NCBI GenBank assembly: GCA_041659785.1 | Contig: JBAZXO010000004.1 | Location: 13,270-77,269 of the forward strand | DNA: 64,000 bases | Reading direction: 5' to 3' | Origin: Minisyncoccota bacterium | Lineage (GTDB): Bacteria > Patescibacteriota > Minisyncoccia > Phycocordibacterales > UBA9973 | In this document: piece by piece, positions 1,816-61,112 of the stretch | Layout of the letters: each line of letters opens with the position of its first letter | Position numbering within the stretch: the stretch's first letter is position 1 | Notes under the pieces: model-generated | Database searches by the model: none | The model's input: only the letters and a program-made list of their open reading frames with translations | Told to the model about the DNA's origin: nothing | Made by a program: the position numbers and the translations under genes

Positions 1816-3030
1816 ATGAAATATTGTAAAGATTGTGAACCGGCGCAGGAAATACATGCAGTGGCGTATCTATCAGTAGTTATGGGTTGGCTAGACCAGC
1901 CATTTTTTGATTTAATGGAAATGCTGTTTAAGAGCACCGCGGAGGCTATTTCTGATAAAATTTCCCTTCCCTTCTTCAAATTAATGATTGCGCTAAAATT
2001 AGGATATTGGACAGACGAACCAGATGATAAAGATACTTGGCGTACAAAATGCTTTTGGGATGAAGCAAAAAGGCGCGGTATAAAAATGCGCGAATTTCAC
2101 TTGGGTCCCATCAGAGATGGCTTTATAGCAGAATACTCGCCCCGCCATGGCGGGGCGAGTGGGGCAAGCAAAACAATAATCTTCGATGGACTACCTCGTC
2201 CTGGATTTAAAGAATCTGAATCTCTCAAATGGATGGACAATAAAGGCACCATGAAAATAAAATTTCTAAAGGAAGGCTTGCCTGTCGCTCCTGGTGGAGT
2301 AGCTTTTACTAAAAAACATGCCCTTGAAATTTTCAACAGCATACAGAAACCAGTCATTACAAAACCAAACCTAGGTTCTAGAAGCAGGCATACGATGATA
2401 CACATAAACACAGGAGAGGGTTTAATAATTGGTTTCAAAAAAGCAAAGAAACTTTCTCCGCTTGTCATCATTGAAGAAGAACTTCGTGGGGACTTATTCC
2501 GAGGAACATTGATTGGCGGAAAATTAGCTGGCGTAGTGAAACGTGATCAACCCGCCGTAACAGGTGATGGAGTTCACATATTAAGTGAATTATTAGAAAA
2601 AGAAAACGAAAGACCAGAAAGAAATGGACCAATTTTCCATAAAATACCCGTCGACAAAGAAGCTGAAATAGAATTAAAAAGACAAAATATTACTATGAGC
2701 GATATCCCAGAAAAAGGTAAGCTTGTAACATTTTCACAAAAGACAAGTCGTGGTTGTGGTGGAACGACTACCGAGGTCACCGACATCGTTCATCCTGACA
2801 ATAAAGAGATGCTCGAACACGTCGGTACTTTTCTGAAAGATCCACTCGTGGGTGTAGATTTTATAATTGAAGACATCACAAAATCTTGGAAAGAGGAACA
2901 ACATTGCGGAATTATTGAATGTAACAGTCTCCCCTTCATAGACCTTCACCATTACGTAATGTTCGGCAAATCAAACAACGTCGCCGGCAAGCTCTGGGAT
3001 CTAGTCTGGCCAGAAACTAAAATAGATTAA
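1816..3030 (+). CDS. ATP-grasp family ligase (RimK/cyanophycin-synthetase-like); contains an in-frame family A palindrome insert
   Basis: KPNLGSRS and IIECNSLP ATP-grasp-like motifs. SPRHGGAS is encoded by the GC palindrome at 2136-2160. Confidence 0.45.
   Translation: MKYCKDCEPAQEIHAVAYLSVVMGWLDQPFFDLMEMLFKSTAEAISDKISLPFFKLMIALKLGYWTDEPDDKDTWRTKCFWDEAKRRGIKMREFHLGPIRDGFIAEYSPRHGGASGASKTIIFDGLPRPGFKESESLKWMDNKGTMKIKFLKEGLPVAPGGVAFTKKHALEIFNSIQKPVITKPNLGSRSRHTMIHINTGEGLIIGFKKAKKLSPLVIIEEELRGDLFRGTLIGGKLAGVVKRDQPAVTGDGVHILSELLEKENERPERNGPIFHKIPVDKEAEIELKRQNITMSDIPEKGKLVTFSQKTSRGCGGTTTEVTDIVHPDNKEMLEHVGTFLKDPLVGVDFIIEDITKSWKEEQHCGIIECNSLPFIDLHHYVMFGKSNNVAGKLWDLVWPETKID
2136..2160. repeat. Family A GC-rich palindrome (TCGCCCCGCCATGGCGGGGCGAGT) in frame inside a CDS
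   Basis: 20-nt perfect palindrome CGCCCCGCCATGGCGGGGCG read directly, encoding SPRHGGAS. Confidence 0.8.
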
Positions 3031-4550: not shown

Positions 4551-6746
4551 ATGCAATTTAGTGACAGGCTAGAAACAAAATTTCGCCTAGACGTAAACCA
4601 GAAAAAAGCTTTAAATAAGCTAAATATTTTTTCTATAGCCGACCTGCTCTTCCACTTCCCTGTACGTTATAGCGACATAAGTGAAGTAAAGAAAATAACA
4701 GACCTGATTCCTGGAGACATGGCGACGGTTTATGGTAAAGTCTCAAAGCTTAAAACTAAAAAGTCTTTCCATTCAAAAATACCAATGGCCGAAGGTGAAA
4801 TAGAAGACCTATCTGGAAAAATAAAAATAACTTGGTTTAATCAAGCTTACCTCGCCAAGATGATAAAAAATGGTGAAAATGTAAAATTAACTGGAAAAGT
4901 TACAGAAGGAAAAAATGGCATTTATTTAGCCAATCCAGAATTTGAAAAAATGTCTAATATGCCAATAGATGCACACGACACACTCTTTAAAAAAGACGGT
5001 ATCTCAAATGCAGGTTTTTCATATCCGATCTATGCAGAGACTCGTGGTATAACTTCTAAGTGGTTTTATCATGCGATAGAAAAAATATTCAAAGAACACA
5101 CATTAGATAATATCGAGGACTATATTCCTGAAGAAATTTTAAAAAAATATCACCTACCTACTTTAAAAAGTGCTCTCATCTGGATCCATAAACCAAAAAA
5201 TAAAAATGATGCAGAGTCTGCACGTAAAAGATTCGCTTTTGAAGAAGTTTTCTGTATTCAGCTAGAACGCCAACATGATAAATTTGAATACAGGAAAAAC
5301 AAATCTTTCAAAATAGAAAAAAATATAAAAGAAACGGAAGAATTTTTAAAACGTTTTCCTTTCAAACCTACAAAATCACAGGAAAAATCAATTGAAACAA
5401 TCTTGAGTGATATGGGAAGAAATTTCCCAATGTCTAGACTCCTTGAAGGTGATGTCGGAAGTGGCAAGACTGCTGTCGCGGCGACAGCTTCTTATGTTGC
5501 AGTAAAACAACGCCCCCAAGACAAAAATGGAAAGGTGCAAACTTTCGGTAATTTACAAGTAGCCTATATGGCACCAACAGAAATCCTTGCTGCCCAACAC
5601 TTCGAGTCTTTTATAGAATATTTTTCACCCCGCCATGGCGGGGCAAGTCTCCCTCTAAACATCGGGCTTATAACAGGGTCAGGTTGTCGTAAATTCCCTT
5701 CTAAAGTAAACCCTAGTGGATGGACCACCATATCCCGCGCCCAACTCCTGAAATGGGTGGCAAATGGAGAAATACCAATTCTAATAGGCACCCATGCTCT
5801 CATCCAAAAAACTGTTAAATTTAAAAATCTTGCTTTGGTAGTGATAGATGAACAGCATCGCTTCGGCACAGCCCAGAGGAGAAAGCTTGTTCGTAAAGAT
5901 AACATTGCCCCGCATTTATTATCTATGACAGCCACTCCTATCCCCCGTACGCTCGCTTTAACTATCTACGGCGACTTAGATTTATCACTTCTCGACGAGA
6001 TGCCAATGGGGCGAAAACAAATAATTACCGAAATAATCACACCCAATAAACGTGAGCAAACTTATGAACAAATAAGGTTAGAACTTAAAGCTGGCAGACA
6101 GCTCTATGTTATCTGTCCTAGAATAAATGAGCCTGATCCAGAAAAAGAAATGGCTTTAAATGTAAAATCTGTAACAGCCGAAGCCAAACGTTTAAAAAAA
6201 GAAGTTTTCCAAGAATATGAAATAAGTGTACTGCATAGCAAAATGAGTAAAGAAAAGAAAGAAAAAGTTATGGAGGAATTTACAGAAGGTAAAATAAATA
6301 TTTTGTGTGCCACATCAGTGGTTGAAGTCGGTGTAAATGTCCCCAATGCCACAATCATAATTATCGAGGGGGCAGAGCGTTTCGGCCTGGCACAACTCCA
6401 CCAACTACGTGGACGTGTCATTCGAAGTTCACATCAAGCATATTGTTATATCTTTGCCGAAGCAAAAACTGAAAAAACAATTGAACGATTAAAAGCACTT
6501 AAAACTGCCAAGAATGGTTTCGAATTAGCTGAGCTCGACCTCGCATTGCGAGGAGCGGGAGAGCTCGGTGGTACTAAACAATGGGGCATCACCGACCTCG
6601 GCATGGAAGCAATAAAAAATATAAAAATGGTAGAAGCCGCCAGAACGGAAGCAATTACTTTAATAGAAAAAGATCCCGAGTTAACGGGATACCCTCTCTT
6701 AAAACAAAAAGTTCACGAAAAAGCTGGCGAATTTCATTTCGAATAA
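4551..6746 (+). CDS. recG: ATP-dependent DNA helicase RecG; contains an in-frame family A palindrome insert
   Basis: 731 aa with DVGSGKT Walker A, VIDEQHRFG and helicase C motifs plus an N-terminal wedge region. SPRHGGAS is encoded by the palindrome at 5625-5648. Confidence 0.85.
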   Translation: MQFSDRLETKFRLDVNQKKALNKLNIFSIADLLFHFPVRYSDISEVKKITDLIPGDMATVYGKVSKLKTKKSFHSKIPMAEGEIEDLSGKIKITWFNQAYLAKMIKNGENVKLTGKVTEGKNGIYLANPEFEKMSNMPIDAHDTLFKKDGISNAGFSYPIYAETRGITSKWFYHAIEKIFKEHTLDNIEDYIPEEILKKYHLPTLKSALIWIHKPKNKNDAESARKRFAFEEVFCIQLERQHDKFEYRKNKSFKIEKNIKETEEFLKRFPFKPTKSQEKSIETILSDMGRNFPMSRLLEGDVGSGKTAVAATASYVAVKQRPQDKNGKVQTFGNLQVAYMAPTEILAAQHFESFIEYFSPRHGGASLPLNIGLITGSGCRKFPSKVNPSGWTTISRAQLLKWVANGEIPILIGTHALIQKTVKFKNLALVVIDEQHRFGTAQRRKLVRKDNIAPHLLSMTATPIPRTLALTIYGDLDLSLLDEMPMGRKQIITEIITPNKREQTYEQIRLELKAGRQLYVICPRINEPDPEKEMALNVKSVTAEAKRLKKEVFQEYEISVLHSKMSKEKKEKVMEEFTEGKINILCATSVVEVGVNVPNATIIIIEGAERFGLAQLHQLRGRVIRSSHQAYCYIFAEAKTEKTIERLKALKTAKNGFELAELDLALRGAGELGGTKQWGITDLGMEAIKNIKMVEAARTEAITLIEKDPELTGYPLLKQKVHEKAGEFHFE
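5625..5648. repeat. Family A GC-rich palindrome (TCACCCCGCCATGGCGGGGCAAGT) in frame in recG
   Basis: 16-nt perfect palindrome CCCCGCCATGGCGGGG read directly. Confidence 0.8.
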
Positions 6747-7457: not shown

Positions 7458-8015
7458 TTATTTATAGTCTGGCTTAATCTCAGGGGCTCCTTCGATATGA
7501 CTAGAAATTCTTGCAAATGCATAAAGAAGACTAGAGAGCCTGTTTAAGTAAGACATCGTCTCTGCGCTCACATTTATTTTTCCTTCTTCTTTTGCAGCTA
7601 CTACTCTCCTCTCTGCTTTCCTAGACAAGGTGCGCGCAAAATCAAAAATTCCCCCTATCTCTGTCGCTCCACTGATAAAGAAATTTTTAATTGGCGGCAA
7701 AACTTTTTCAATTTCATCTACCATCGTTTCAATCTTGGTAATTTTTTCTGTTGTGATAGAGAGAGTAGCGCCAGCAACTTCTGCTTGAACAATAAATAAA
7801 TTCTGCTGAACCTCTAAAATAAGATCGGAAAATTTTACTTCACCGCTATTTATTTTAAAACTCATTCCTTTTGTTTTAGCGCGAGTAAGACCCAAAAAAG
7901 AATTTATCTCATCTAAAGTACCAAGGGCTTCTGCCACAGTCGAACTCTTGGAGATGCGTTGATCACATCCAAAAGTTTTTGTTGTGCCATTGTCCCCTTT
8001 TCTAGTGTAAAGCAT
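7458..8015 (-). CDS. PduO-type ATP:cob(I)alamin adenosyltransferase
   Basis: N-terminal LYTRKGDNGTT matches the PduO-type ATR signature (TGDKGxT); about 185 aa. Confidence 0.6.
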   Translation of the reverse strand: MLYTRKGDNGTTKTFGCDQRISKSSTVAEALGTLDEINSFLGLTRAKTKGMSFKINSGEVKFSDLILEVQQNLFIVQAEVAGATLSITTEKITKIETMVDEIEKVLPPIKNFFISGATEIGGIFDFARTLSRKAERRVVAAKEEGKINVSAETMSYLNRLSSLLYAFARISSHIEGAPEIKPDYK

Positions 8016-15920: not shown

Positions 15921-15940
15921 CTCCCCCTTCGCAGGGGGAG
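15921..15940 (+). terminator. GC-rich hairpin after smpB
   Basis: CTCCCCC-ttcgca-GGGGGAG perfect 7-bp stem. Confidence 0.5.
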
Positions 15941-15981: not shown

Positions 15982-16383
15982 GGGGATGCAAGGCATAGAC
16001 AGTTGGCTCAATTGTTATTGATGCATACCGAGTACGGACGTAATCTCGTTAAAATTCGTTCAAATGTTAATTGCAAAATTGACTGCTAAAGCAAAAGCTG
16101 TAGTCTCTCCATTCTTCGGAATGAATGATTTCGCTTTCGCTCCATCTTTCGCGTAAGCCTGGGGTGGTGTCTATCTTATAGACTTCCGATATATAAGATT
16201 AGGCATAATATTATCGGGATAGGAAAAAGCATGTCTCGACTCTATCCGAAACAAAGGGGCTCGATTAAAGAATATTTGGCTCGTTTAAGAATTTTTTAAT
16301 CTAAACAAAAAAAGCGCGCTAAGTATGTAGACTTCTTTACAATAACCTTCTGCACGGGGATTCAATTTCCCCCATCTCCACAA
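15982..16383 (+). ncRNA. ssrA: tmRNA (ssrA); tag ORF 16085-16156
   Basis: 5' GGGGAUG pairs with 3' CAUCUCC to give G3-U70 and A73. The 3' end CGGGGAUUCAAUUUCCCCCAUCUCCACAA closely parallels the E. coli tmRNA 3' end. A GG.AUAGAC D-analogue is present. Open tag frame is AKAKAVVSPFFGMNDFAFAPSFA-stop. Lies immediately downstream of smpB, and TACAAT sits 5 nt upstream. Confidence 0.75.
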
Positions 16384-30449: not shown

Positions 30450-30998
30450 TTATACAGTCTTTTTACCTTGTTTTCGTCTTATAACTTCACCTTCATAACG
30501 CATACCTTTACCTTTATAAGGTTCTGGCTTCTTCAATGCACGTACAGCTGCAGTAAAACTTCCAACAAGTTCTTTATCTATACCAGTAATCGTAATATTA
30601 TTTTTCTCAGCTGTGGCAGTAATGCCTTCTGGAATAGGGACAATAACAGGATGAGAAAATCCTAAAGCAAAATGAAGCTCTTTGCCTTTTACTTCAGATT
30701 TAAATCCAACTCCTTCTAAAATTAATTTCTTTTGGTAAGGGGTAACTACTCCAGCAATCATATTTTTTATGTGTGAAGCATATGTACCCCAAAGAGATTT
30801 AGAAAATTTGTCGTTTCTCTTTATGTTTAAAGTAATGATCTTGTCAGTAATAGTAATGGCAATATCGTCTCTGAAAATTTTATTGAGTGTTCCCTTGGGA
30901 CCAGTAACAGTAAAAGTGTTGCCAACGTTTGTGACTTTCACTCCTTCCGGTATTAATATTTCTTGTTTTCCTATTCTACTCATATATTTTTTTACCAA
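30450..30998 (-). CDS. rplF: 50S ribosomal protein L6
   Basis: [17 protein letters not shown]. Confidence 0.85.
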
Positions 30999-31402
30999 AC
31001 TCTAAACAAAGCTTCTCCACCGACTTGCTCATGCCTTGCTTCTTTACCTGATAAGATTCCTTTTGGTGTTGAAAGTACAAGTAAACCAGAACCGTTTCGA
31101 ACTGAATGGATATCTTTCATACCGAAATAAACACGTCGTGATTGTTTGGAAATTCTTTCAACTTCTGCAATCTTTGGCTTTTTGTCTACATAAATAAGTC
31201 CAACTTCCAACATGGGTTGGCCTTTTTTTACTTTTTTAGAAATCTCAGAGATGTATCCTGCCTTTTTTAAACATTCACCAATAGCATTCTTCATCTTGGA
31301 ATATGGAACAAGAACAGACTCCTTGCCTGCAAGTGAACCGTTCTTCATTATTATTATCATGTTTGAAATTGAATCCATAATTTTATTTAAATTTTTTACC
31401 AA
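30992..31402 (-). CDS. rpsH: 30S ribosomal protein S8
   Basis: [10 protein letters not shown]. Confidence 0.85.
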
Positions 31403-31581: not shown

Positions 31582-31748
31582 AAATAATTAATAGGGAGCT
31601 TGCCTCGCCTAAAGGCGGGGTGAACTTCGTTAATATCTCACTTTTTTTCTTTAAACCTCTAAGGTAGAGAGTTAAAGGAGAAAAGTGGATTAATCAAAGC
31701 TATATTCCCTTGTTTTTATACTATCAAATTTAACATAATTAGTCAATC

Positions 31749-32315
31749 TTACTTTTTCTTACTATCTTCCTCTTTTTTAAAAGGAATACCTAAAATTTCA
31801 AAAAATGCTGTACCTTCTTTTTTATTGTGAGCAGTTGAAACCATGGTGATAGACATACCGAAAACATCGCGGATATCTTCATCAGCTGTCTCTGGGAAAA
31901 TTGTGTGTTCTTTAATACCGATAGTTAAGTTACCGATGTCATCTACAGCTTTGCGATTGATACCACGGAAGTCTTTCGTACGAGGAAGAGCTACATTGAT
32001 AAGCTTTTCCAAGAAAGCGTACATTCTCTTACCACGCAATGTAACGACAACTCCGACAGGGTCACCCTGACGAATTTTGAAAGTTGAGATTGATTGTTTT
32101 GCTCCACGAAGAGCAGTCTTCTGGCCAGTAATTTTTGCCAAACGATCACCAATAGCTTCATTTTTATTCTTGTCTTTCTTTACCATAGTTCCAGTACCGA
32201 CGTTGATAACAACTTTCGTCATCTTTGGTGCTGCCATGATATTTTTAAAATGAAAAACAGTTTTCATTTTTGCAAAGGCTTCTATTTCTTTTTCTTTTAC
32301 AGTTAAATGTTTCAT
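31749..32315 (-). CDS. rplE: 50S ribosomal protein L5
   Basis: 188 aa, L5 family. Confidence 0.85.
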   Translation of the reverse strand: MKHLTVKEKEIEAFAKMKTVFHFKNIMAAPKMTKVVINVGTGTMVKKDKNKNEAIGDRLAKITGQKTALRGAKQSISTFKIRQGDPVGVVVTLRGKRMYAFLEKLINVALPRTKDFRGINRKAVDDIGNLTIGIKEHTIFPETADEDIRDVFGMSITMVSTAHNKKEGTAFFEILGIPFKKEEDSKKK

Positions 32316-44281: not shown

Positions 44282-45595
44282 TTAGGCTGGCACAAAGGTT
44301 AGGGCATTCCCCTTTTTGCCTGCGCGGCCGGTTCGGCCGATGCGGTGCACATAAGTATCGTAGGTTTGTGGTACGTCAAAGTTTATGACATGAGTAACAT
44401 CTGGAATATCAAGTCCACGGGCTGCCACATCTGTCGCAATCAAGATATTGATTTGATCTTTTTTAAACATATCGAGAGTTCGGATACGCTCACGGCTTCT
44501 TTTGTCGCCATGAATACACCCAACCTTGAACCCCATATGAGCAAGCTCTTTTGTGAGTGTGTCCACGCTGTGTTTCATTTCTCGGAAAATAAGGACCTTG
44601 TCAGAACCATCTTTTTTCAAGACTTCGTGAAGTTTTTCTAATTGTTCATCTTTGCCTCTGTATCTGATAACGTCTTGTTCAATATTTTTTGCTGTCTCAC
44701 CGGAAATTACTGAAATAAAAACAGGATTTACTAAATAAAGTTCTGTTAATTTCTTAATATCAGCAGATAGTGTAGCAGAGAAGAAAAGCGTCTGACGGCC
44801 TTCCTTTGGTGTTTTACCTATAATGTAGACCATATCGTCTCTGAAGCCCATGTCGAGCATTCTGTCTGCCTCGTCGAGCACAACAGAGTGACAAGTAGAA
44901 AGGTCGAGAACTTTTTTATCAATTAAATCTCTTATTCTACCTGGAGTACCAATGACAAATGAAACTCCCATTTTTATTTCTCGAATTTGCTTCATGATTG
45001 GTAGGCCTCCTACACAAGCAACAGAAAACATCCCGAAGCCAAAAGCGAGATTTTTAAAATCAGATTCTATCTGAAGTGCGAGTTCTCTGGTCGGAGCCAT
45101 TATCAAAACTGTTTCTCTTTTATTCATTCCTTTAGTCTTTGAAATCTTTTCAATCAAAGGAAGCAAAAAGGCAGCAGTCTTACCTGTACCAGTATTTGCC
45201 ATACCGAAAACGTCCTTTCCTTGCATCACAGAAGGAATAGCTTGGTCCTGAATAGGCCTTGGGTTTGTATATCCAGCTCTTTCAATATTTTTATAAAGTT
45301 GAGAATTAAAAGGAAAATCTGCAAAAGTATGTTTTGCAACATAAGGCTTTTCTTCCACGTGAGTAGCTTTCTTTATGAAACGAGAAAAATCTATACGTTC
45401 ACCACGTGATCTTTTACTTGCCCCGCCTTGGCGGTGGTTACTTGATGGTCTACTCCCCCTAAAGCTAGGACGAGAACTACCAAATCTTTTAGCCCCGCCG
45501 AAGCGAGAACTTGAATGCGGTCTAGCCGAAGCTGGACGCGCAAAACTGCGTTTGTTAATCATATATTTCTTTGTGTCATGGTAACCAATCTTCAC
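44282..45595 (-). CDS. DEAD-box ATP-dependent RNA helicase with an N-terminal Arg/Ser/Gly-rich extension
   Basis: Q-motif F.DF....L...I...GY..P.PIQ, ANTGTGKT, VLDEADRM, SAT, HRIGRTGR. The extension includes a family A-like HRQGGAS segment. Confidence 0.8.
   Translation of the reverse strand: MKIGYHDTKKYMINKRSFARPASARPHSSSRFGGAKRFGSSRPSFRGSRPSSNHRQGGASKRSRGERIDFSRFIKKATHVEEKPYVAKHTFADFPFNSQLYKNIERAGYTNPRPIQDQAIPSVMQGKDVFGMANTGTGKTAAFLLPLIEKISKTKGMNKRETVLIMAPTRELALQIESDFKNLAFGFGMFSVACVGGLPIMKQIREIKMGVSFVIGTPGRIRDLIDKKVLDLSTCHSVVLDEADRMLDMGFRDDMVYIIGKTPKEGRQTLFFSATLSADIKKLTELYLVNPVFISVISGETAKNIEQDVIRYRGKDEQLEKLHEVLKKDGSDKVLIFREMKHSVDTLTKELAHMGFKVGCIHGDKRSRERIRTLDMFKKDQINILIATDVAARGLDIPDVTHVINFDVPQTYDTYVHRIGRTGRAGKKGNALTFVPA
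45416..45441. repeat. Degenerate family A element inside the DEAD-box helicase gene
   Basis: Minus-strand CACCGCCAAGGCGGGGCAAGT versus the canonical CCCCGCCATGGCGGGGCAAGT. Confidence 0.6.
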
Positions 45596-45780
45596 GACTC
45601 AAAGTCATAATTGATTTCCATCACGTGCCCGCCCTAACTTTAGTGTTGGCGGGAGCTCAGTCTCGTTATATTAAGCTCGTCCGCCTATGGCGTGAGATGA
45701 GAATGATGTATAAAGAATAGCATTTCTATCTATATTTGTCAATGATTTCTTAATCTAGAGAAAAAAGATATACTAAAAAT

Positions 45781-55143: not shown

Positions 55144-56166
55144 TTACACAATATTGACTTCGGGCACCAAATCAAGGCCGAATTTTTCTTTTACGGATGC
55201 AATAATATTGTTTGCTAATTCGACAATCTCAGGACCAGTAGCCCCGCCATAATTTACTAAAACTAATGCTTGTTTATCATGAACTCCAACATTTCCTATT
55301 CTTTTTCCCTTCCAACCAGATTGCTCAATGAGCCATCCAGCTGGAACTTTAATTATCCCCTCTTCTTCAAAAGAAGGAATAATAGGGTAAGTAGAAAGTA
55401 GCCTAGTCAATTGTTCTTTTTTTACAAAAACATTTTTAAAAAAGCTACCGGCATTACCTAAAATCTTAGGATCTGGTAATTTACTATTTCTTATAGACAC
55501 CACAGCATCACTTATGTCTTTTGAGTTTTTAATTTCTCCGCCAGCTGGCGGATTATTTTCTAAAAAATCTTTCAAGATTCTGTAAGAAATGTTAGGGGCA
55601 GGTTTTTTACTTAATTTTAAAGTTAAAGCAGAAATAAAATATTTTCCTTTTAATTTATTTTTAAAAACACTATCTCGATAACCCAATTCACATTCTTCTT
55701 TACTAAAAATTCTTTTCATCCCTGTCTCAATTTCAAAAGCTTCGACATTTAAAAGTGTATCTTTAAGCTCTGCCCCATAAGCTCCAATGTTTTGCATAGG
55801 AGCTGCACCAACCGTTCCTGGAATAAGCGATAAATTCTCAATACCCCAATACCCCTTATTTACTGAAAAAAGTACGAGATCGTGCCACGATTCACCACCA
55901 AGAGAACGGACAAGCACATCTTCGGAATTTTCATTTATGGTTTCTATCCCTTTTAATTTATTTAATACGACAAAACCATCAAAATCTTTAACAAAAAGAA
56001 CATTGCTTCCTCCACCAAGAAATATTTTATTGTTCTCTTTAAATTCTGGAAGACTAAAAAGTTCTGATAAATCTGCTTCAGATTTTACTTCAACAAAAAA
56101 TTTAGCCTTAGCATTTATGCCAAAGGTATTCAGTTTAGATAAATTGTAATTTTTCTCTATCTGCAT
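55144..56166 (-). CDS. murB: UDP-N-acetylenolpyruvoylglucosamine reductase
   Basis: FLGGGSNVL FAD-binding and IPGTVGAAPMQNIGAYG motifs. Start taken at MQIEKNY. Confidence 0.75.
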   Translation of the reverse strand: MQIEKNYNLSKLNTFGINAKAKFFVEVKSEADLSELFSLPEFKENNKIFLGGGSNVLFVKDFDGFVVLNKLKGIETINENSEDVLVRSLGGESWHDLVLFSVNKGYWGIENLSLIPGTVGAAPMQNIGAYGAELKDTLLNVEAFEIETGMKRIFSKEECELGYRDSVFKNKLKGKYFISALTLKLSKKPAPNISYRILKDFLENNPPAGGEIKNSKDISDAVVSIRNSKLPDPKILGNAGSFFKNVFVKKEQLTRLLSTYPIIPSFEEEGIIKVPAGWLIEQSGWKGKRIGNVGVHDKQALVLVNYGGATGPEIVELANNIIASVKEKFGLDLVPEVNIV

Positions 56167-56168
56167 TT

Positions 56169-57539
56169 TTATATAAATATAGAAATAATCGCTCCAATAC
56201 CAACCAAAGAAATTAATACGAAAGTAATCCACCCAAAAATATTAGTACTTTTTTTATTTTTGAAATTACCCATAATGCTCTCATCTCCGCTTAAGTGAAC
56301 AATGAAGAAGATCATAAATGGAGAAATGATTCCATTCAAAACAGCGGAATAAATGAGCGCTTTGATCGGATCAAGACCGACAAAATTCAAAATTATTCCG
56401 AGGACCATCGCAATAATAATAATTCCATAAAAAGAAGTGCCTTGTTTTAATTTTCGATAAAGCCCCGTCTTCCAGCCGAAAGATTCTGAGATTGCATAAG
56501 ATGCCGAACCAGCGAGAACAGGTATAGCGAGGAGTCCCGTGCCTAAAATCCCTAAAGCAAAAAGGATGAAAGCGAAATTCCCAGCAAAGGGCCGCAAGGC
56601 TATCGCCGCATCAGAAGCTGTAGCAATATTTGTAATTCCATTCGCATAGAGTGTCGCTGCGCAAGCTGCGATGATAAAGAACATTATCATATTTGAAACT
56701 AGCATCCCTGACCATACATCGATACGCATATTTTTTATATCTAGAGGCGTAGTGCTAGCACGACGTATTGCTTCAGTTTTTTCTCCATGTAAAATCTGTT
56801 CTTCGACTTCTTGGGAAGATTGCCAGAAAAATAAATAAGGGCTGATGGTCGTGCCGAGAGCTGCTGTGATAAGGATAATCATATCTTTAGAAAAATGAAA
56901 ACTTGGTATTACTGTATTTCGTAATACTTCTCCCCAATTCATTTTTACAGAAAAAGCCGAAACAACATAAGCAAAGAGTATAAAGGTGAGATATTTTAAA
57001 TATTTAGCATATTTCTTATAAGAAATAAAAATTTGTAAAAATAAAGAAGCTATAGCAAAAAGAAAAATTAAAAAAATAAAATTTAAAAAAGGAAACATCA
57101 ACTGCGTTCCTTTCGCCATCGCCCCCAAGTCTGCCCCAATATTAAAAACATTAGCAAAAAGTAAAAGTGCTGTACATAAATAAAGAAGTTTCTTTGAGTA
57201 ATATTTTCTAATGTTCGCAGCGAGGCCGACTCCGGTAGCAAGCCCGATGCGTGCGCACATTTCTTGTATCGTCGCCATAAGTGGAAAAGAAAAAAGTGAC
57301 AACCAAATAAGACCGAAGCCTTGCGATGCACCCATTTGTGAATATGTAGCAATTCCAGAAGGATCATCATCTGCAGCACCTGTGATGAGCCCAGGACCTA
57401 ACTTTTTCCAATATTCTATAGCAGCTTTTACTGGCTTTTCGGCAACGATACCTTCTTCTAATTCGTGCCCGACTTCTACGCTCTTTTCCAAAATTTCTGC
57501 CGGTGCGCTAAAAAGTTTTTCCCAAATGCTCTTTCTCAT
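56169..57539 (-). CDS. mntH: NRAMP-family divalent metal transporter
   Basis: GPG.ITGAADDDPSGIATYS and MATIQE motifs; 11-12 TM. Confidence 0.8.
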   Translation of the reverse strand: MRKSIWEKLFSAPAEILEKSVEVGHELEEGIVAEKPVKAAIEYWKKLGPGLITGAADDDPSGIATYSQMGASQGFGLIWLSLFSFPLMATIQEMCARIGLATGVGLAANIRKYYSKKLLYLCTALLLFANVFNIGADLGAMAKGTQLMFPFLNFIFLIFLFAIASLFLQIFISYKKYAKYLKYLTFILFAYVVSAFSVKMNWGEVLRNTVIPSFHFSKDMIILITAALGTTISPYLFFWQSSQEVEEQILHGEKTEAIRRASTTPLDIKNMRIDVWSGMLVSNMIMFFIIAACAATLYANGITNIATASDAAIALRPFAGNFAFILFALGILGTGLLAIPVLAGSASYAISESFGWKTGLYRKLKQGTSFYGIIIIAMVLGIILNFVGLDPIKALIYSAVLNGIISPFMIFFIVHLSGDESIMGNFKNKKSTNIFGWITFVLISLVGIGAIISIFI

Positions 57540-60074: not shown

Positions 60075-60833
60075 ATTAGCTATTTTTCTAAACATTAAAG
60101 GTAAGGGCGATTCTACTTTTATTGTTTTACCTTTTAAGTCTTTAAATTCTATAGATTTAGCATGCAGAGCCATACGTTTTATATCTTTCGGGTGTGGTGC
60201 ACCAGGATTATAGAGCTCATCACAGACTACAGGATGATTTAAATATTTCATGTGCACACGAATCTGATGTGTACGACCAGTTTTCGGATATACTTCCAAA
60301 TATGTAAATTTAGAAGGCGCTTCGAACCTTTTTAAGACTTTATATTGAGTGATTGCTTCTCTAATTTCTCCTCGAACTCCTCTGCCAGAGAGATATCGAC
60401 GAAAGTCTGCGGGACTTCGGCCAATGGGTTTGTTGATTACTCCCCTATCGTCTTTAACCCAACCATTAACTATCGCAACGTATGTCTTGTTGATTCTATT
60501 TTGCCTGTCCGCCAATCCGCTACCAGTTTTTAATCCAAAAGCGGGGGCGGAAAACTGACTCTTTAAAAATTCATAAGCTTTTTTATTTTTTGCTAAAAGC
60601 AAAACACCGGAAGTGTCGCGGTCTAGTCTGTGAACAATGCCGGGGCGCACAATATCCCCCATTGGCTCACCTACGTTTTTCATTTTTGGATAATTTTCTA
60701 AAACCCAGTCCGCAATTGTTTTCTCCCCGCTAGCGTGGGGAGGTTTTGTTTTACCATCTCCATGCACCGAAATACCAGACGGTTTGTCTATGGCTAAAAT
60801 ATTAGAATCCTCATATAAGATTTTTATTTTCAT
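60054..60833 (-). CDS. RluA-family pseudouridine synthase (RluD-like)
   Basis: HRLDRDTSGVLLLAKN catalytic Asp motif; 259 aa. Confidence 0.75.
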   Translation of the reverse strand: MKIKILYEDSNILAIDKPSGISVHGDGKTKPPHASGEKTIADWVLENYPKMKNVGEPMGDIVRPGIVHRLDRDTSGVLLLAKNKKAYEFLKSQFSAPAFGLKTGSGLADRQNRINKTYVAIVNGWVKDDRGVINKPIGRSPADFRRYLSGRGVRGEIREAITQYKVLKRFEAPSKFTYLEVYPKTGRTHQIRVHMKYLNHPVVCDELYNPGAPHPKDIKRMALHAKSIEFKDLKGKTIKVESPLPLMFRKIANPDVGRL

Positions 60834-60908: not shown

Positions 60909-60922
60909 AAATTGAGAACATG

Positions 60923-60995
60923 TGCGCGGTGAGGGACTTGAACCCCCGACCTTCTCAGTGTAAATGAGTTGCTCTACCAACTGAGCTAACCGCGC
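60923..60995 (-). tRNA. tRNA-Val (anticodon UAC); no encoded CCA (A73 then CAU)
   Basis: Acceptor GCGCGGT/ACCGCGC, D-arm GCTCAGTTGGTAGAGC, anticodon loop TTTACAC, T-arm GGGGG-TTCAAGT-CCCTC. Confidence 0.75.
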
Positions 60996-61055
60996 ATTCA
61001 CTTTAATTGAAACAAAGAACTATATTCGTAATGCAAGTTAACGACATACCAAAAC

Positions 61056-61075
61056 AGCTAACCGCGCATTCACTT
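61056..61075. repeat. 20-nt direct repeat duplicating the tRNA-Val 5' end plus its 5' flank (copy of 60984-61003)
   Basis: AGCTAACCGCGCATTCACTT occurs twice, 72 nt apart. Confidence 0.8.
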
Positions 61076-61087
61076 CTAACGACCTAC

Positions 61088-61112
61088 TTCATCCCGCCAT
61101 GGCGGGACAAGA
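61088..61112. repeat. Family A GC-rich palindrome, intergenic copy (TCCCGCCATGGCGGGA)
   Basis: Read directly, 13 nt after the duplicated tRNA fragment. Confidence 0.75.

Follow-up and report, generated by a model that had tools for sequence, protein, structure and literature searches.

A GC-rich near-palindromic repeat of 24 nt with one copy in recG is dispersed among Patescibacteria and looks like a new miniature mobile DNA

Introduction

Why does the recG gene of a bacterium with an AT-rich genome carry a perfect GC-rich palindrome within its reading frame, and where does this palindrome come from? The gene in question (4551-6746, plus strand) is located on a 64 kb stretch of a Minisyncoccota genome (GCA_041659785.1, contig JBAZXO010000004.1, positions 13,270 to 77,269), which is called the window in the following and to which, as a whole, all positions refer. 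The GC content of the window is 33-40%. A first-pass annotation of the window had pointed to the 16-nt perfect palindrome CCCCGCCATGGCGGGG, which is indeed present at 5628-5643 inside the recG frame and belongs to a segment translated as SPRHGGAS. We report here that this palindrome is part of a GC-rich near-palindromic dispersed repeat of 24 nt. The repeat is apparently undescribed, and by its behaviour it looks like a new miniature mobile DNA. With a probability of roughly 55% we consider it a selfish, non-autonomous mini-element of the Patescibacteria, which is tied to GIY-YIG nuclease cassettes and for which the nuclease is proposed as mobiliser.

In the searched literature we found neither a description of the element nor, in full text, a match for the encoded peptides. 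The only paper which contained the 16-mer core in the full-text search is an unrelated herpesvirus study. The literature search also revealed nothing which links Patescibacteria with palindromes or in-frame insertions, or GIY-YIG proteins with tRNA-fragment cassettes. A 2025 preprint on tRNA introns of Patescibacteria mentions neither in-frame palindromes nor GIY-YIG/tRNA-fragment cassettes.

Definition of the repeat unit

The canonical element TTCACCCCGCCATGGCGGGGCAAG occupies 5624-5647 on the plus strand, and the peptide SPRHGGAS is encoded by the codons 5625-5648. Due to the sharp end of the flank similarity the repeat unit could be fixed as TTCACCCCGCCAWGGCGGGGCAAG, which is 24 nt long and corresponds to the consensus T-TCA-CCCCGCC-AW-GGCGGGG-CAAG. 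It consists of a stem of 6-7 bp with the asymmetric flanks TTCA and CAAG, which are kept at all sites. In the species-level scan described below position -1 is a T in 53 of 56 sites, and little similarity remains past CAAG. The central loop is variable (AT, AA, TTTA or CCGAAGCG), and arm-swapped variants occur as well, e.g. a form encoding SPRHGGVK (TTCA...TGAA). For the recG hairpin, folding energies of -7.6 kcal/mol (DNA) and -12.5 kcal/mol (RNA) were calculated.

A 12-mer search which allowed up to two mismatches gave six matches in the window versus 0.36 expected. With the 24-mer and up to three mismatches four matches on three loci were obtained versus 0.00 expected from 100 shuffles, whereby the copy at 2136 counts twice, once for each strand. 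In total the window contains five copies of the element family, two of which fit the 23-mer pattern of the scan exactly. An origin by chance or from low-complexity sequence was rejected based on the shuffle statistics and on the identical GC-rich synonymous codons found at about 70 sites. A known RNA family was rejected as well, as a search of the window and 37 loci against Rfam at gathering thresholds gave only tRNA, rRNA and tmRNA.

Insertion polymorphism in RecG

The RecG protein of the window was aligned with 120 orthologues of 82-100% identity, the names of which refer to Candidatus Paceibacterota, Nomurabacteria and Parcubacteria. At the position of the palindrome (site 1) about 105 of the 120 orthologues are empty and read ...YF-(K/R)H-LP...; all but one of those which are not filled have K/R-H at this site. 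Site 1 is filled in 14 of the 120 proteins, either by SPRHGGAS, SPRQGGAS, SPRPEAGGAS or SPRLETGGAS, or by decayed forms such as STPAEGRAG, NPPAGG and SAKDGSASGEK. Twelve other orthologues contain similar blocks, e.g. GPASPRQGGASGVNW, about 25 residues downstream (site 2). On the DNA level the empty allele of a relative with 91% identity (L001) reads TATTTT-AAACAT-CTACCC and the filled allele of the window TATTTT-TCACCCCGCCATGGCGGGGCAAGT-CTCCCT, which means that 24 nt stand in place of 6 nt (AAACAT, encoding KH). The recG gene of L003 carries a variant of the element with an 8-nt loop, and at site 2 of L002 a copy is nested inside the loop of an older hairpin.

In a neighbour-joining tree of RecG the filled site-1 alleles are found in at least eight separate clades, each beside empty alleles. 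Because the filled alleles are scattered in this way, site 1 is either a hot spot of insertion, or alleles were swapped by recombination.

The first-pass annotation had interpreted the recG segment as an insertion rather than as ancestral sequence and had placed it between the wedge and the helicase domain. The former is borne out by the mostly empty orthologues; the latter had to be revised. According to the Pfam DEAD domain (residues 274-468) and an alignment to the Thermotoga maritima RecG structure 1GM5, the insertion falls within lobe 1 of the helicase, after motif Ia and ahead of both the next strand and motif Ib, where the block extends a short connection.

About 1-2 kb upstream of recG in L003/L004 (7652-9163) a free-standing GIY-YIG open reading frame (ORF) lies beside a LAGLIDADG ORF. 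This nuclease pair sits in the relative whose recG contains the variant with the 8-nt loop.

The copy in an ATP-grasp gene

A second in-frame copy had been noticed in an ATP-grasp gene. This ORF (1816-3030, plus strand) encodes a cyanophycin-synthetase-like protein, and its copy indeed shares the core of the recG copy and the peptide SPRHGGAS; its extent was corrected to 2135-2160 (plus strand), where it forms the 26-nt perfect palindrome ACTCGCCCCGCCATGGCGGGGCGAGT. For this symmetric copy -15.3 kcal/mol (DNA) and -27.4 kcal/mol (RNA) were calculated. It is directly followed by a partial arm repeat, GGGGCAAGC (2161-2169, plus strand), which adds the residues GAS to give SPRHGGAS-GAS.

Among 120 orthologues of the ATP-grasp-like protein 75 are short, with KG at the site, and 45 are long. 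A recognisable element is present in 15 of the 45 long forms; the rest is K/N/D-rich, as expected for putative decay products under AT pressure. The site of L003 is empty and reads AEY-KG-KTI (GAATAT-AAGGGT-AAGACT), the sites of L036 and of the window are filled, and 24 nt again replace 6 nt. In P0242, from a strain of 96% identity, the arm-swapped symmetric form TTCA...TGAA encodes SPRHGGVK; therefore the element is still changing between near-identical strains. For RecG as well as for the ATP-grasp-like protein the block of eight residues is missing from most close relatives.

Dispersal among Patescibacteria

A scan of one genome per GTDB species with the pattern TCRCCCCGCCAWGGCGGGGCRAG revealed 56 loci, about 48 of which, judged from record titles and GC content, belong to Patescibacteria with a GC content of 30-49%. 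Their hosts are Nomurabacteria, Paceibacteria, Minisyncoccia, Magasanik-, Falkow- and Komeilibacteria as well as metagenome-assembled genomes labelled Saccharibacteria. The few loci outside the Patescibacteria are from GC-rich genomes, where the pattern may plausibly have matched by chance. In metagenomes the exact 24-mer was found at 76 further loci. Many of the loci stem from groundwater series such as those of Hainich or Rifle. Clustering of the flanks resulted in about 70 distinct contexts on more than 100 Patescibacteria contigs, and the spread that had been claimed from the window copies holds for an identical 24-mer over these contexts. The number of exact copies per genome is low, namely 1-3 among the scan hits. 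No phage vector was identified in the viral contigs of IMG/VR, which gave 0 matches for the 24-mer and no relatives of the GIY-YIG protein.

The most common single site is located directly after the stop codon of rpsP, the gene of ribosomal protein S16. There the element is found in antisense orientation in about 15 loci (L007 at 5102-5124, L013, L038, L060 and about 11 more), with a KH-domain gene and trmD downstream. On the gene strand the copy at this site lies between the hexamers TTGAAA and TATAAT/TATACT, which are 37 nt apart. Five copies belong to rRNA spacers and are all in sense orientation: four of them lie 160-215 nt downstream of the 16S rRNA gene (L017, L034, L035, L054) and one 160-215 nt upstream of the 23S rRNA gene (L044). 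A further copy is located inside the 3' region of a 23S rRNA gene (L086, 142-165; about model positions 2810-2830) in antisense orientation, where it resembles a small expansion segment. An orientation locked to transcription was rejected since the copies at rpsP, in tRNA fragments and in the 23S rRNA gene are antisense.

The element shows a preference for the tips of existing stem-loops. Ten of the 56 sites lie at the tip of a flanking stem of at least 5 bp versus 2.6 expected, and none of 1000 permutations reached ten. Among them are terminator-like stems (GGATTTTTT/AAAAAATCC), and nested copies are present in L002, L015, L033 and L037. A search for a target-site motif gave only a weak R-C preference at positions -3 and -2. 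The comparison of empty and filled sites indicates that 2-6 nt are replaced and that no duplication is formed.

In mnmA of L024, L080 and L101 three tandem or nested copies are found (L024, about 7640-7790), which jointly add about 45 residues to MnmA. Each of the copies is preceded by GCAGAT, and one contains a further hairpin in its loop. The unit in this genome seems to be longer (GCGCAGAT...AAGCGC). A CRISPR-like array was considered for L024 and rejected, as its spacers measure no more than 5-7 nt and mnmA is translated through the entire block.

Reading frame of the copies in genes

All copies within long open frames (47-50 of 47-50) are oriented with the coding strand and are read in the SPR[HQ]GGAS frame. 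They represent at least 13 independent coding sites: two in recG and one each in the ATP-grasp gene, rsmA, murB, tgt, a uvrD-like gene, rplF, pgm, holB, mnmA, an rnr-like gene and a DEAD-box gene. RsmA/KsgA, MurB, Tgt, ribosomal protein L6, PGM/PMM, HolB and MnmA were confirmed by Pfam. As only one of the six frames across the element is closed, it is far from a random outcome that 13 of 13 sites share one frame. The earlier claim that copies in coding sequence are always read in the frame giving one peptide can be maintained; all copies in bona fide genes use one strand and one frame. Because both orientations occur outside of genes, we infer that selection acting on the peptide best explains the uniformity within genes. 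The first-pass annotation had also named two outcomes contrary to its reading, namely a block conserved in distant orthologues with non-palindromic DNA and a small number of copies without bias; neither was found.

The UvrD/PcrA-like host helicase of L031 (3280-6312) in addition appears to contain an intein-like insertion of about 400 residues which ends with ...THNC, and it holds a masked run of X.

tRNA fragments and GIY-YIG cassettes

At least 25 loci contain a duplicated 5' part of a tRNA gene in which the element, invariably in antisense orientation relative to the tRNA, stands in place of the D-loop TGG. Almost always these copies are followed by an ORF of 80-100 aa which encodes a GIY-YIG catalytic domain (Pfam PF01541, E = 3.7e-15); the distance between such an ORF and the element is at most about 150 nt in at least 14 loci. 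Read in the sense of the tRNA, the standard cassette consists of tRNA positions 1 to about 27, whose D-loop holds the hairpin, followed by the nuclease ORF and then by the intact tRNA gene. Standard hairpin cassettes were seen at tRNA-Tyr, Ser(gct), Ser(tga) and Gln. The order as such, with a tRNA 5' fragment (positions 1 to about 27), the nuclease ORF and, right after its stop codon, the intact tRNA gene, is shared by L021 (2960-3361), L052, L058, L055, L100, L116, L108, L098, L028, L072, L140 and L147. The tRNA genes concerned are those of tRNA-Tyr, Ser, Gln, Gly, Ala and Glu, and the hosts are Patescibacteria, Omnitrophota and Bacteroidota. This unit is a recurrent selfish cassette, for which the searched literature contained no description.

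Several cassettes deviate from the standard arrangement. A hairpin is found on each side of the ORF in L098 and L116, and in L066 and L103 it is reversed and located at the end of the fragment. In L113 the canonical hairpin is split, CTTGCCCCGCC-AAATTT-[ORF + tRNA-Gln]-AAATTT-GGCGGGGTGAAG. The ORFs of L029 and L135 are surrounded by inverted repeats of 17 and 15 nt, respectively, of which those in L029 are of the CCCCGC type and resemble the arms of the element.

The association was also found in the reciprocal direction. Seven GIY-YIG loci, among them loci from Roizmanbacteria, Omnitrophota and Bacteroidota, were chosen by protein identity alone, and all seven contain a hairpin of the type CCCCGCC/GGCGGGG or TCCCGCC/GGCGGGA inside an adjacent partial tRNA copy. 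In L156, L160 (tRNA-Gly) and L163 (Bacteroidota) the sequence CCCCGCC-AC(C)-GGCGGGG replaces the whole anticodon arm, and the resulting anticodon-less tRNA-like repeats flank the nuclease ORF. We furthermore clustered 867 ORFs located within 1.5 kb of elements in an all-against-all comparison. The GIY-YIG family (16 loci, minimum identity 29%) is the sole family which recurs across non-orthologous contexts; no Y1, TnpB, DDE or recombinase family recurs among these ORFs.

A functional tRNA with an intron-like insert was considered and rejected, as excision of the hairpin followed by ARAGORN restores a full tRNA only in L098; the other hairpin-bearing tRNA copies are 5' fragments next to an intact tRNA. 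In L098 (638-661) a full tRNA-Ser(gct) is predicted only after removal of the 24-nt hairpin from the D-loop, and standard finders miss the gene. Either this gene copy is disabled, or its tRNA has an expanded D-loop.

Gene callers extend GIY-YIG ORFs through the hairpin (P0121, P0128, P0138, P0139, P0147 and others), which yields spurious-looking N-termini of the nuclease such as MPRHGGVKS and LAPPRRGE. Many of the GIY-YIG homologues are on contigs of less than 2 kb, as expected of repeats which break assemblies.

Further copies in the window

Three more members of the family are present in the window. The copy at 61088-61111 (plus strand, TTCATCCCGCCATGGCGGGACAAG), an intergenic one already known from the first-pass annotation, exhibits a compensatory change of C-G to T-A in the stem, i.e. 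a C-to-T and a G-to-A change which leave the stem paired. The same stem variant TCCCGCC/GGCGGGA is also found upstream of a GIY-YIG ORF in L032. The copy is antisense to a tRNA-Val gene (60922-60995, minus strand) and lies about 95 nt upstream of it. Beside it, the tRNA-Val leader plus the first 11 nt of the gene, AAGTGAATGCGCGGTTAGCT (original at 60984-61003), are duplicated at 61056-61075 on the minus strand. The copy thereby fits the tRNA-fragment pattern, and the duplicate looks like the remnant of a cassette with tRNA 5' fragment and hairpin which is devoid of the nuclease ORF.

At 45417-45440 (minus strand) a decayed copy, AACCACCGCCAAGGCGGGGCAAGT in coding sense, encodes NHRQGGAS within a DEAD-box helicase ORF (44282-45595, minus strand), as had been proposed. 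It is located in the Arg/Gly/Ser-rich N-terminal tail of the helicase, agrees with the consensus in 21 of 24 positions by eye and has retained the flank CAAGT. The sequence around 31603-31620, formerly a possible relative, turned out to be a true family member with the full extent 31599-31624 on the minus strand (TTCACCCCGCC-TTTA-GGCGAGGCAAG). It has a 4-nt loop and one stem mismatch and is intergenic, flanked by the minus-strand ORFs 30992-31402 and 31749-32315. The second group of suggested relatives, at 45625-45694, lacks the flanks TTCA and CAAG and can therefore not be assigned to the family.

Two palindromes which had not been listed before suggest that several sub-families exist. A second type, TCCGCCAGCTGGCGGA, is located in frame at 55537-55552 (minus strand) in murB (55144-56232, minus strand) and encodes N-PPAGGE. 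The NPPAGGE block is missing in the MurB orthologue of L015, and the peptide NPPAGG is the same as the one which occupies RecG site 1 in P0078. A weaker palindrome, CTCCCCGCTAGCGTGGGGAG (60723-60742, coding strand), lies in a rluA-like gene and encodes PPHASGE.

Apart from the element, the window contains a tmRNA gene at 15982-16383 (119.5 bits versus Rfam). Ahead of it and after smpB a GC hairpin, CTCCCCC-TTCGCA-GGGGGAG (15921-15940), was found, the sequence of which is unrelated to the element.

Discussion

Dimers of small GIY-YIG restriction enzymes recognise short GC-rich palindromes, e.g. CCGCGG, whereas branched DNA is cut by GIY-YIG enzymes of the Slx1 type. We infer that the cassette nuclease is the mobilising enzyme, and propose that it would recognise the palindrome or the extruded hairpin and cut at or near its centre. 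Repair of the break would then copy or ligate the hairpin into new places, with a preference for the tips of existing stem-loops. Copies which enter genes would survive as an extra surface loop Ser-Pro-Arg-His/Gln-Gly-Gly-Ala-Ser, which is presumably flexible due to its Ser, Pro and Gly residues, because their length is a multiple of three and the frame used contains no stop. After insertion the copies decay under AT mutation pressure.

Several points weigh against this proposal. The solitary copies show neither a target-site duplication nor a target consensus, and the multiple filled clades of RecG may reflect an exchange of alleles by recombination instead of repeated insertion. The single frame fits no known mechanism on the DNA level, and selection on the peptide is assumed. 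With hmmsearch (E up to 10) no GIY-YIG gene is found in the window, and therefore all five window copies are solitary. The most common cassette has an intact hairpin beside the ORF, which is odd if the nuclease cleaves the hairpin. To our knowledge, no transposition chemistry relies on a GIY-YIG nuclease alone. Finally, the association could be passive, with tRNA fragments as neutral and safe landing places in compact genomes.

A more far-reaching version of the proposal, which we put forward only tentatively, is a new class of bacterial mobile DNA, in which a minimal GIY-YIG nuclease consisting only of the catalytic domain moves a 24-nt hairpin by a 'hairpin swap' guided by structure. The hairpin would take the place of the loop or arm of a stem-loop that is already there, be it a tRNA D-loop, an anticodon arm, the tip of a rRNA helix or an older copy. 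The same system would build the cassettes of tRNA fragment, nuclease and tRNA from Patescibacteria to Omnitrophota and Bacteroidota, and as a by-product essential proteins of bacteria with reduced genomes would acquire new Gly/Ser/Pro loops.

Of the rival readings the strongest, though still unlikely, is that the palindrome itself is not mobile. It would be the site at which a homodimeric GIY-YIG homing endonuclease homes or which it recognises, or else a scar of templated repair left by this enzyme; solitary copies would then be off-target breaks which were patched by copying the hairpin of a cassette. The ORFs of L113, L029 and L135 are indeed located between inverted half-sites, as expected for an endonuclease gene at the centre of its palindromic target. 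The centre of the palindrome is variable, and target bases are replaced and not duplicated (6 nt in recG and the ATP-grasp gene, TGG in the D-loops). However, most cassettes, including the most common form with the hairpin upstream of the ORF, combine an intact palindrome with a directly adjacent intact nuclease ORF. The identical 24-nt boundaries at about 70 sites would demand a very reproducible patching, and no microhomology between targets and element ends is evident.

We consider it rather improbable that the element is moved as a repetitive extragenic palindrome (REP)-like unit by a tyrosine HUH transposase (RAYT or the TnpA of IS200/IS605) acting on the single-stranded hairpin, with the GIY-YIG gene being incidental since tRNA fragments would only be places which tolerate an insertion. 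The short imperfect palindrome with its asymmetric 4-nt flanks is REP-like, the preference for stem-loop tips would agree with single-stranded targets, nested copies exist, and the window copies have no nuclease nearby. Yet neither Y1, TnpB nor any other transposase family recurs among the 867 neighbouring ORFs, and hairpin and GIY-YIG gene are jointly conserved across phyla. Many copies are intragenic, and their number is low, with 1-3 exact copies in each genome hit by the scan. The tag GTAG or CGTC described for the REP superfamilies (PMC3733652) is missing as well.

A motif selected by the host, be it a peptide, a DNA site of the parS or uptake-signal type or a stabilising or terminating RNA hairpin, which arose by convergence or was conserved, could account for the strict conservation of the 24-mer across distant Patescibacteria, the compensatory stem change at 61088-61111 and the recurrence in rRNA spacers and just behind the stop codon of rpsP, but is very hard to reconcile with presence and absence among orthologues of 85-98% identity, free decay to AT-rich codons, unrelated host genes and protein positions, the lack of a T-run for termination, a copy number far below the level of uptake signals and the same GC-rich synonymous codons in AT-rich genomes, which argue for a common descent of the DNA. 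A site of a serine recombinase (12+2+12) and P-nucleotide or hairpin-end repair were considered on paper and rejected, as no supporting gene was found and the sequence is constant whatever its flanks are.

Comparison with known systems

Under the preferred reading, a mini-element with the GIY-YIG nuclease as proposed mobiliser, the element is best described as working like Rickettsia palindromic elements (RPEs) or mitochondrial GC clusters and belonging to neither. The likeness to RPEs had been proposed for a GC-rich palindrome in an AT-rich genome which enters genes secondarily, in frame and with one peptide, and it holds for the behaviour only. Both are palindromic repeats of reduced AT-rich genomes, inserted in frame into unrelated protein and RNA genes; both add a tolerated surface peptide in one preferred frame and are devoid of an own transposase. 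The in-frame insertion into unrelated ORFs and its polymorphism between relatives were found for the element, too. RPEs, described by Ogata and colleagues in 2000, reportedly comprise about 100-150 bp, encode 30-50 aa and occur in Rickettsia only, and no nuclease partner is reported for them. Taking RPEs by their description, size and lineage set the element apart: with 24 nt (8 aa) and sharp ends it is about five times shorter and belongs to another phylum. In contrast to RPEs it is also phylum-wide, tied to GIY-YIG/tRNA-fragment cassettes, and replaces few target bases.

The GC clusters of yeast and fungal mitochondria are organellar, measure 30-60 bp, and some classes have TAG or AG target duplications. 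The ribosome skips the related byp elements of Magnusiomyces, whose length is no multiple of three. The element resembles GC clusters as a short GC-rich palindrome dispersed in an AT-rich compact genome, sometimes in frame (var1), and often beside free-standing endonuclease ORFs. It differs from GC clusters and byp elements by its bacterial hosts, the missing target duplication and the coding copies, which without exception keep the frame and are presumably translated. In fungal mitochondrial genomes, too, partial duplications of genes are found beside the genes of GIY-YIG homing endonucleases (e.g. PMC4162613).

The element can furthermore be compared with REPs, as a non-autonomous and dispersed imperfect palindrome with a short asymmetric tag; REPs comprise 20-40 nt, the element 24 nt with a 6-7 bp stem. 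REPs and bacterial interspersed mosaic elements (BIMEs) are extragenic, reach hundreds of copies and are linked to a Y1 (RAYT) transposase. The element, in contrast, is tagged by TTCA/CAAG, often intragenic (at least 13 sites), low in copy number and linked to GIY-YIG. For REPs a conserved tetranucleotide tag GTAG or CGTC at one end is described (PMC3733652). A miniature inverted-repeat transposable element (MITE) shares terminal inverted repeats with an autonomous element; this might apply to L113, where hairpin arms flank the GIY-YIG ORF, and to L029 with similar repeats, but in most cassettes an intact hairpin lies beside the ORF. Size and the missing target-site duplication (2-6 nt are replaced) distinguish the element from classical MITEs.

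With regard to the nuclease, the Seg proteins of phage T4 are free-standing GIY-YIG homing endonucleases, and SegB is encoded in a tRNA gene cluster. As in the Seg case, a small selfish nuclease gene lies beside or inside tRNA genes, and the disrupted or duplicated target adjoins the ORF. Seg proteins and I-Tev enzymes, however, have a separate DNA-binding domain, comprise about 200-250 aa in total and have no portable palindrome, whereas the nuclease linked to the element consists of the catalytic domain of 80-100 aa only and a conserved GC hairpin travels along with it.

Implications for Patescibacteria

The genomes of Patescibacteria are among the smallest and most compact in bacteria. Within them essential genes (recG, murB, tgt, rplF, mnmA, holB) as well as rRNA and tRNA loci have been colonised by the element, which indicates that streamlining does not exclude mobile DNA. 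For practical purposes the element is usable as a marker for strain typing, and it may contribute to contig breaks. It also causes annotation errors, namely spurious N-terminal extensions of nuclease ORFs such as MPRHGGVK and tRNA genes which are missed due to inserts in the D-loop. For its hosts the element is a ready source of variation in protein loops between near-identical strains. The bare GIY-YIG domain and the partial tRNA duplications possibly point to a movement of DNA in these bacteria outside of the known transposase chemistries.

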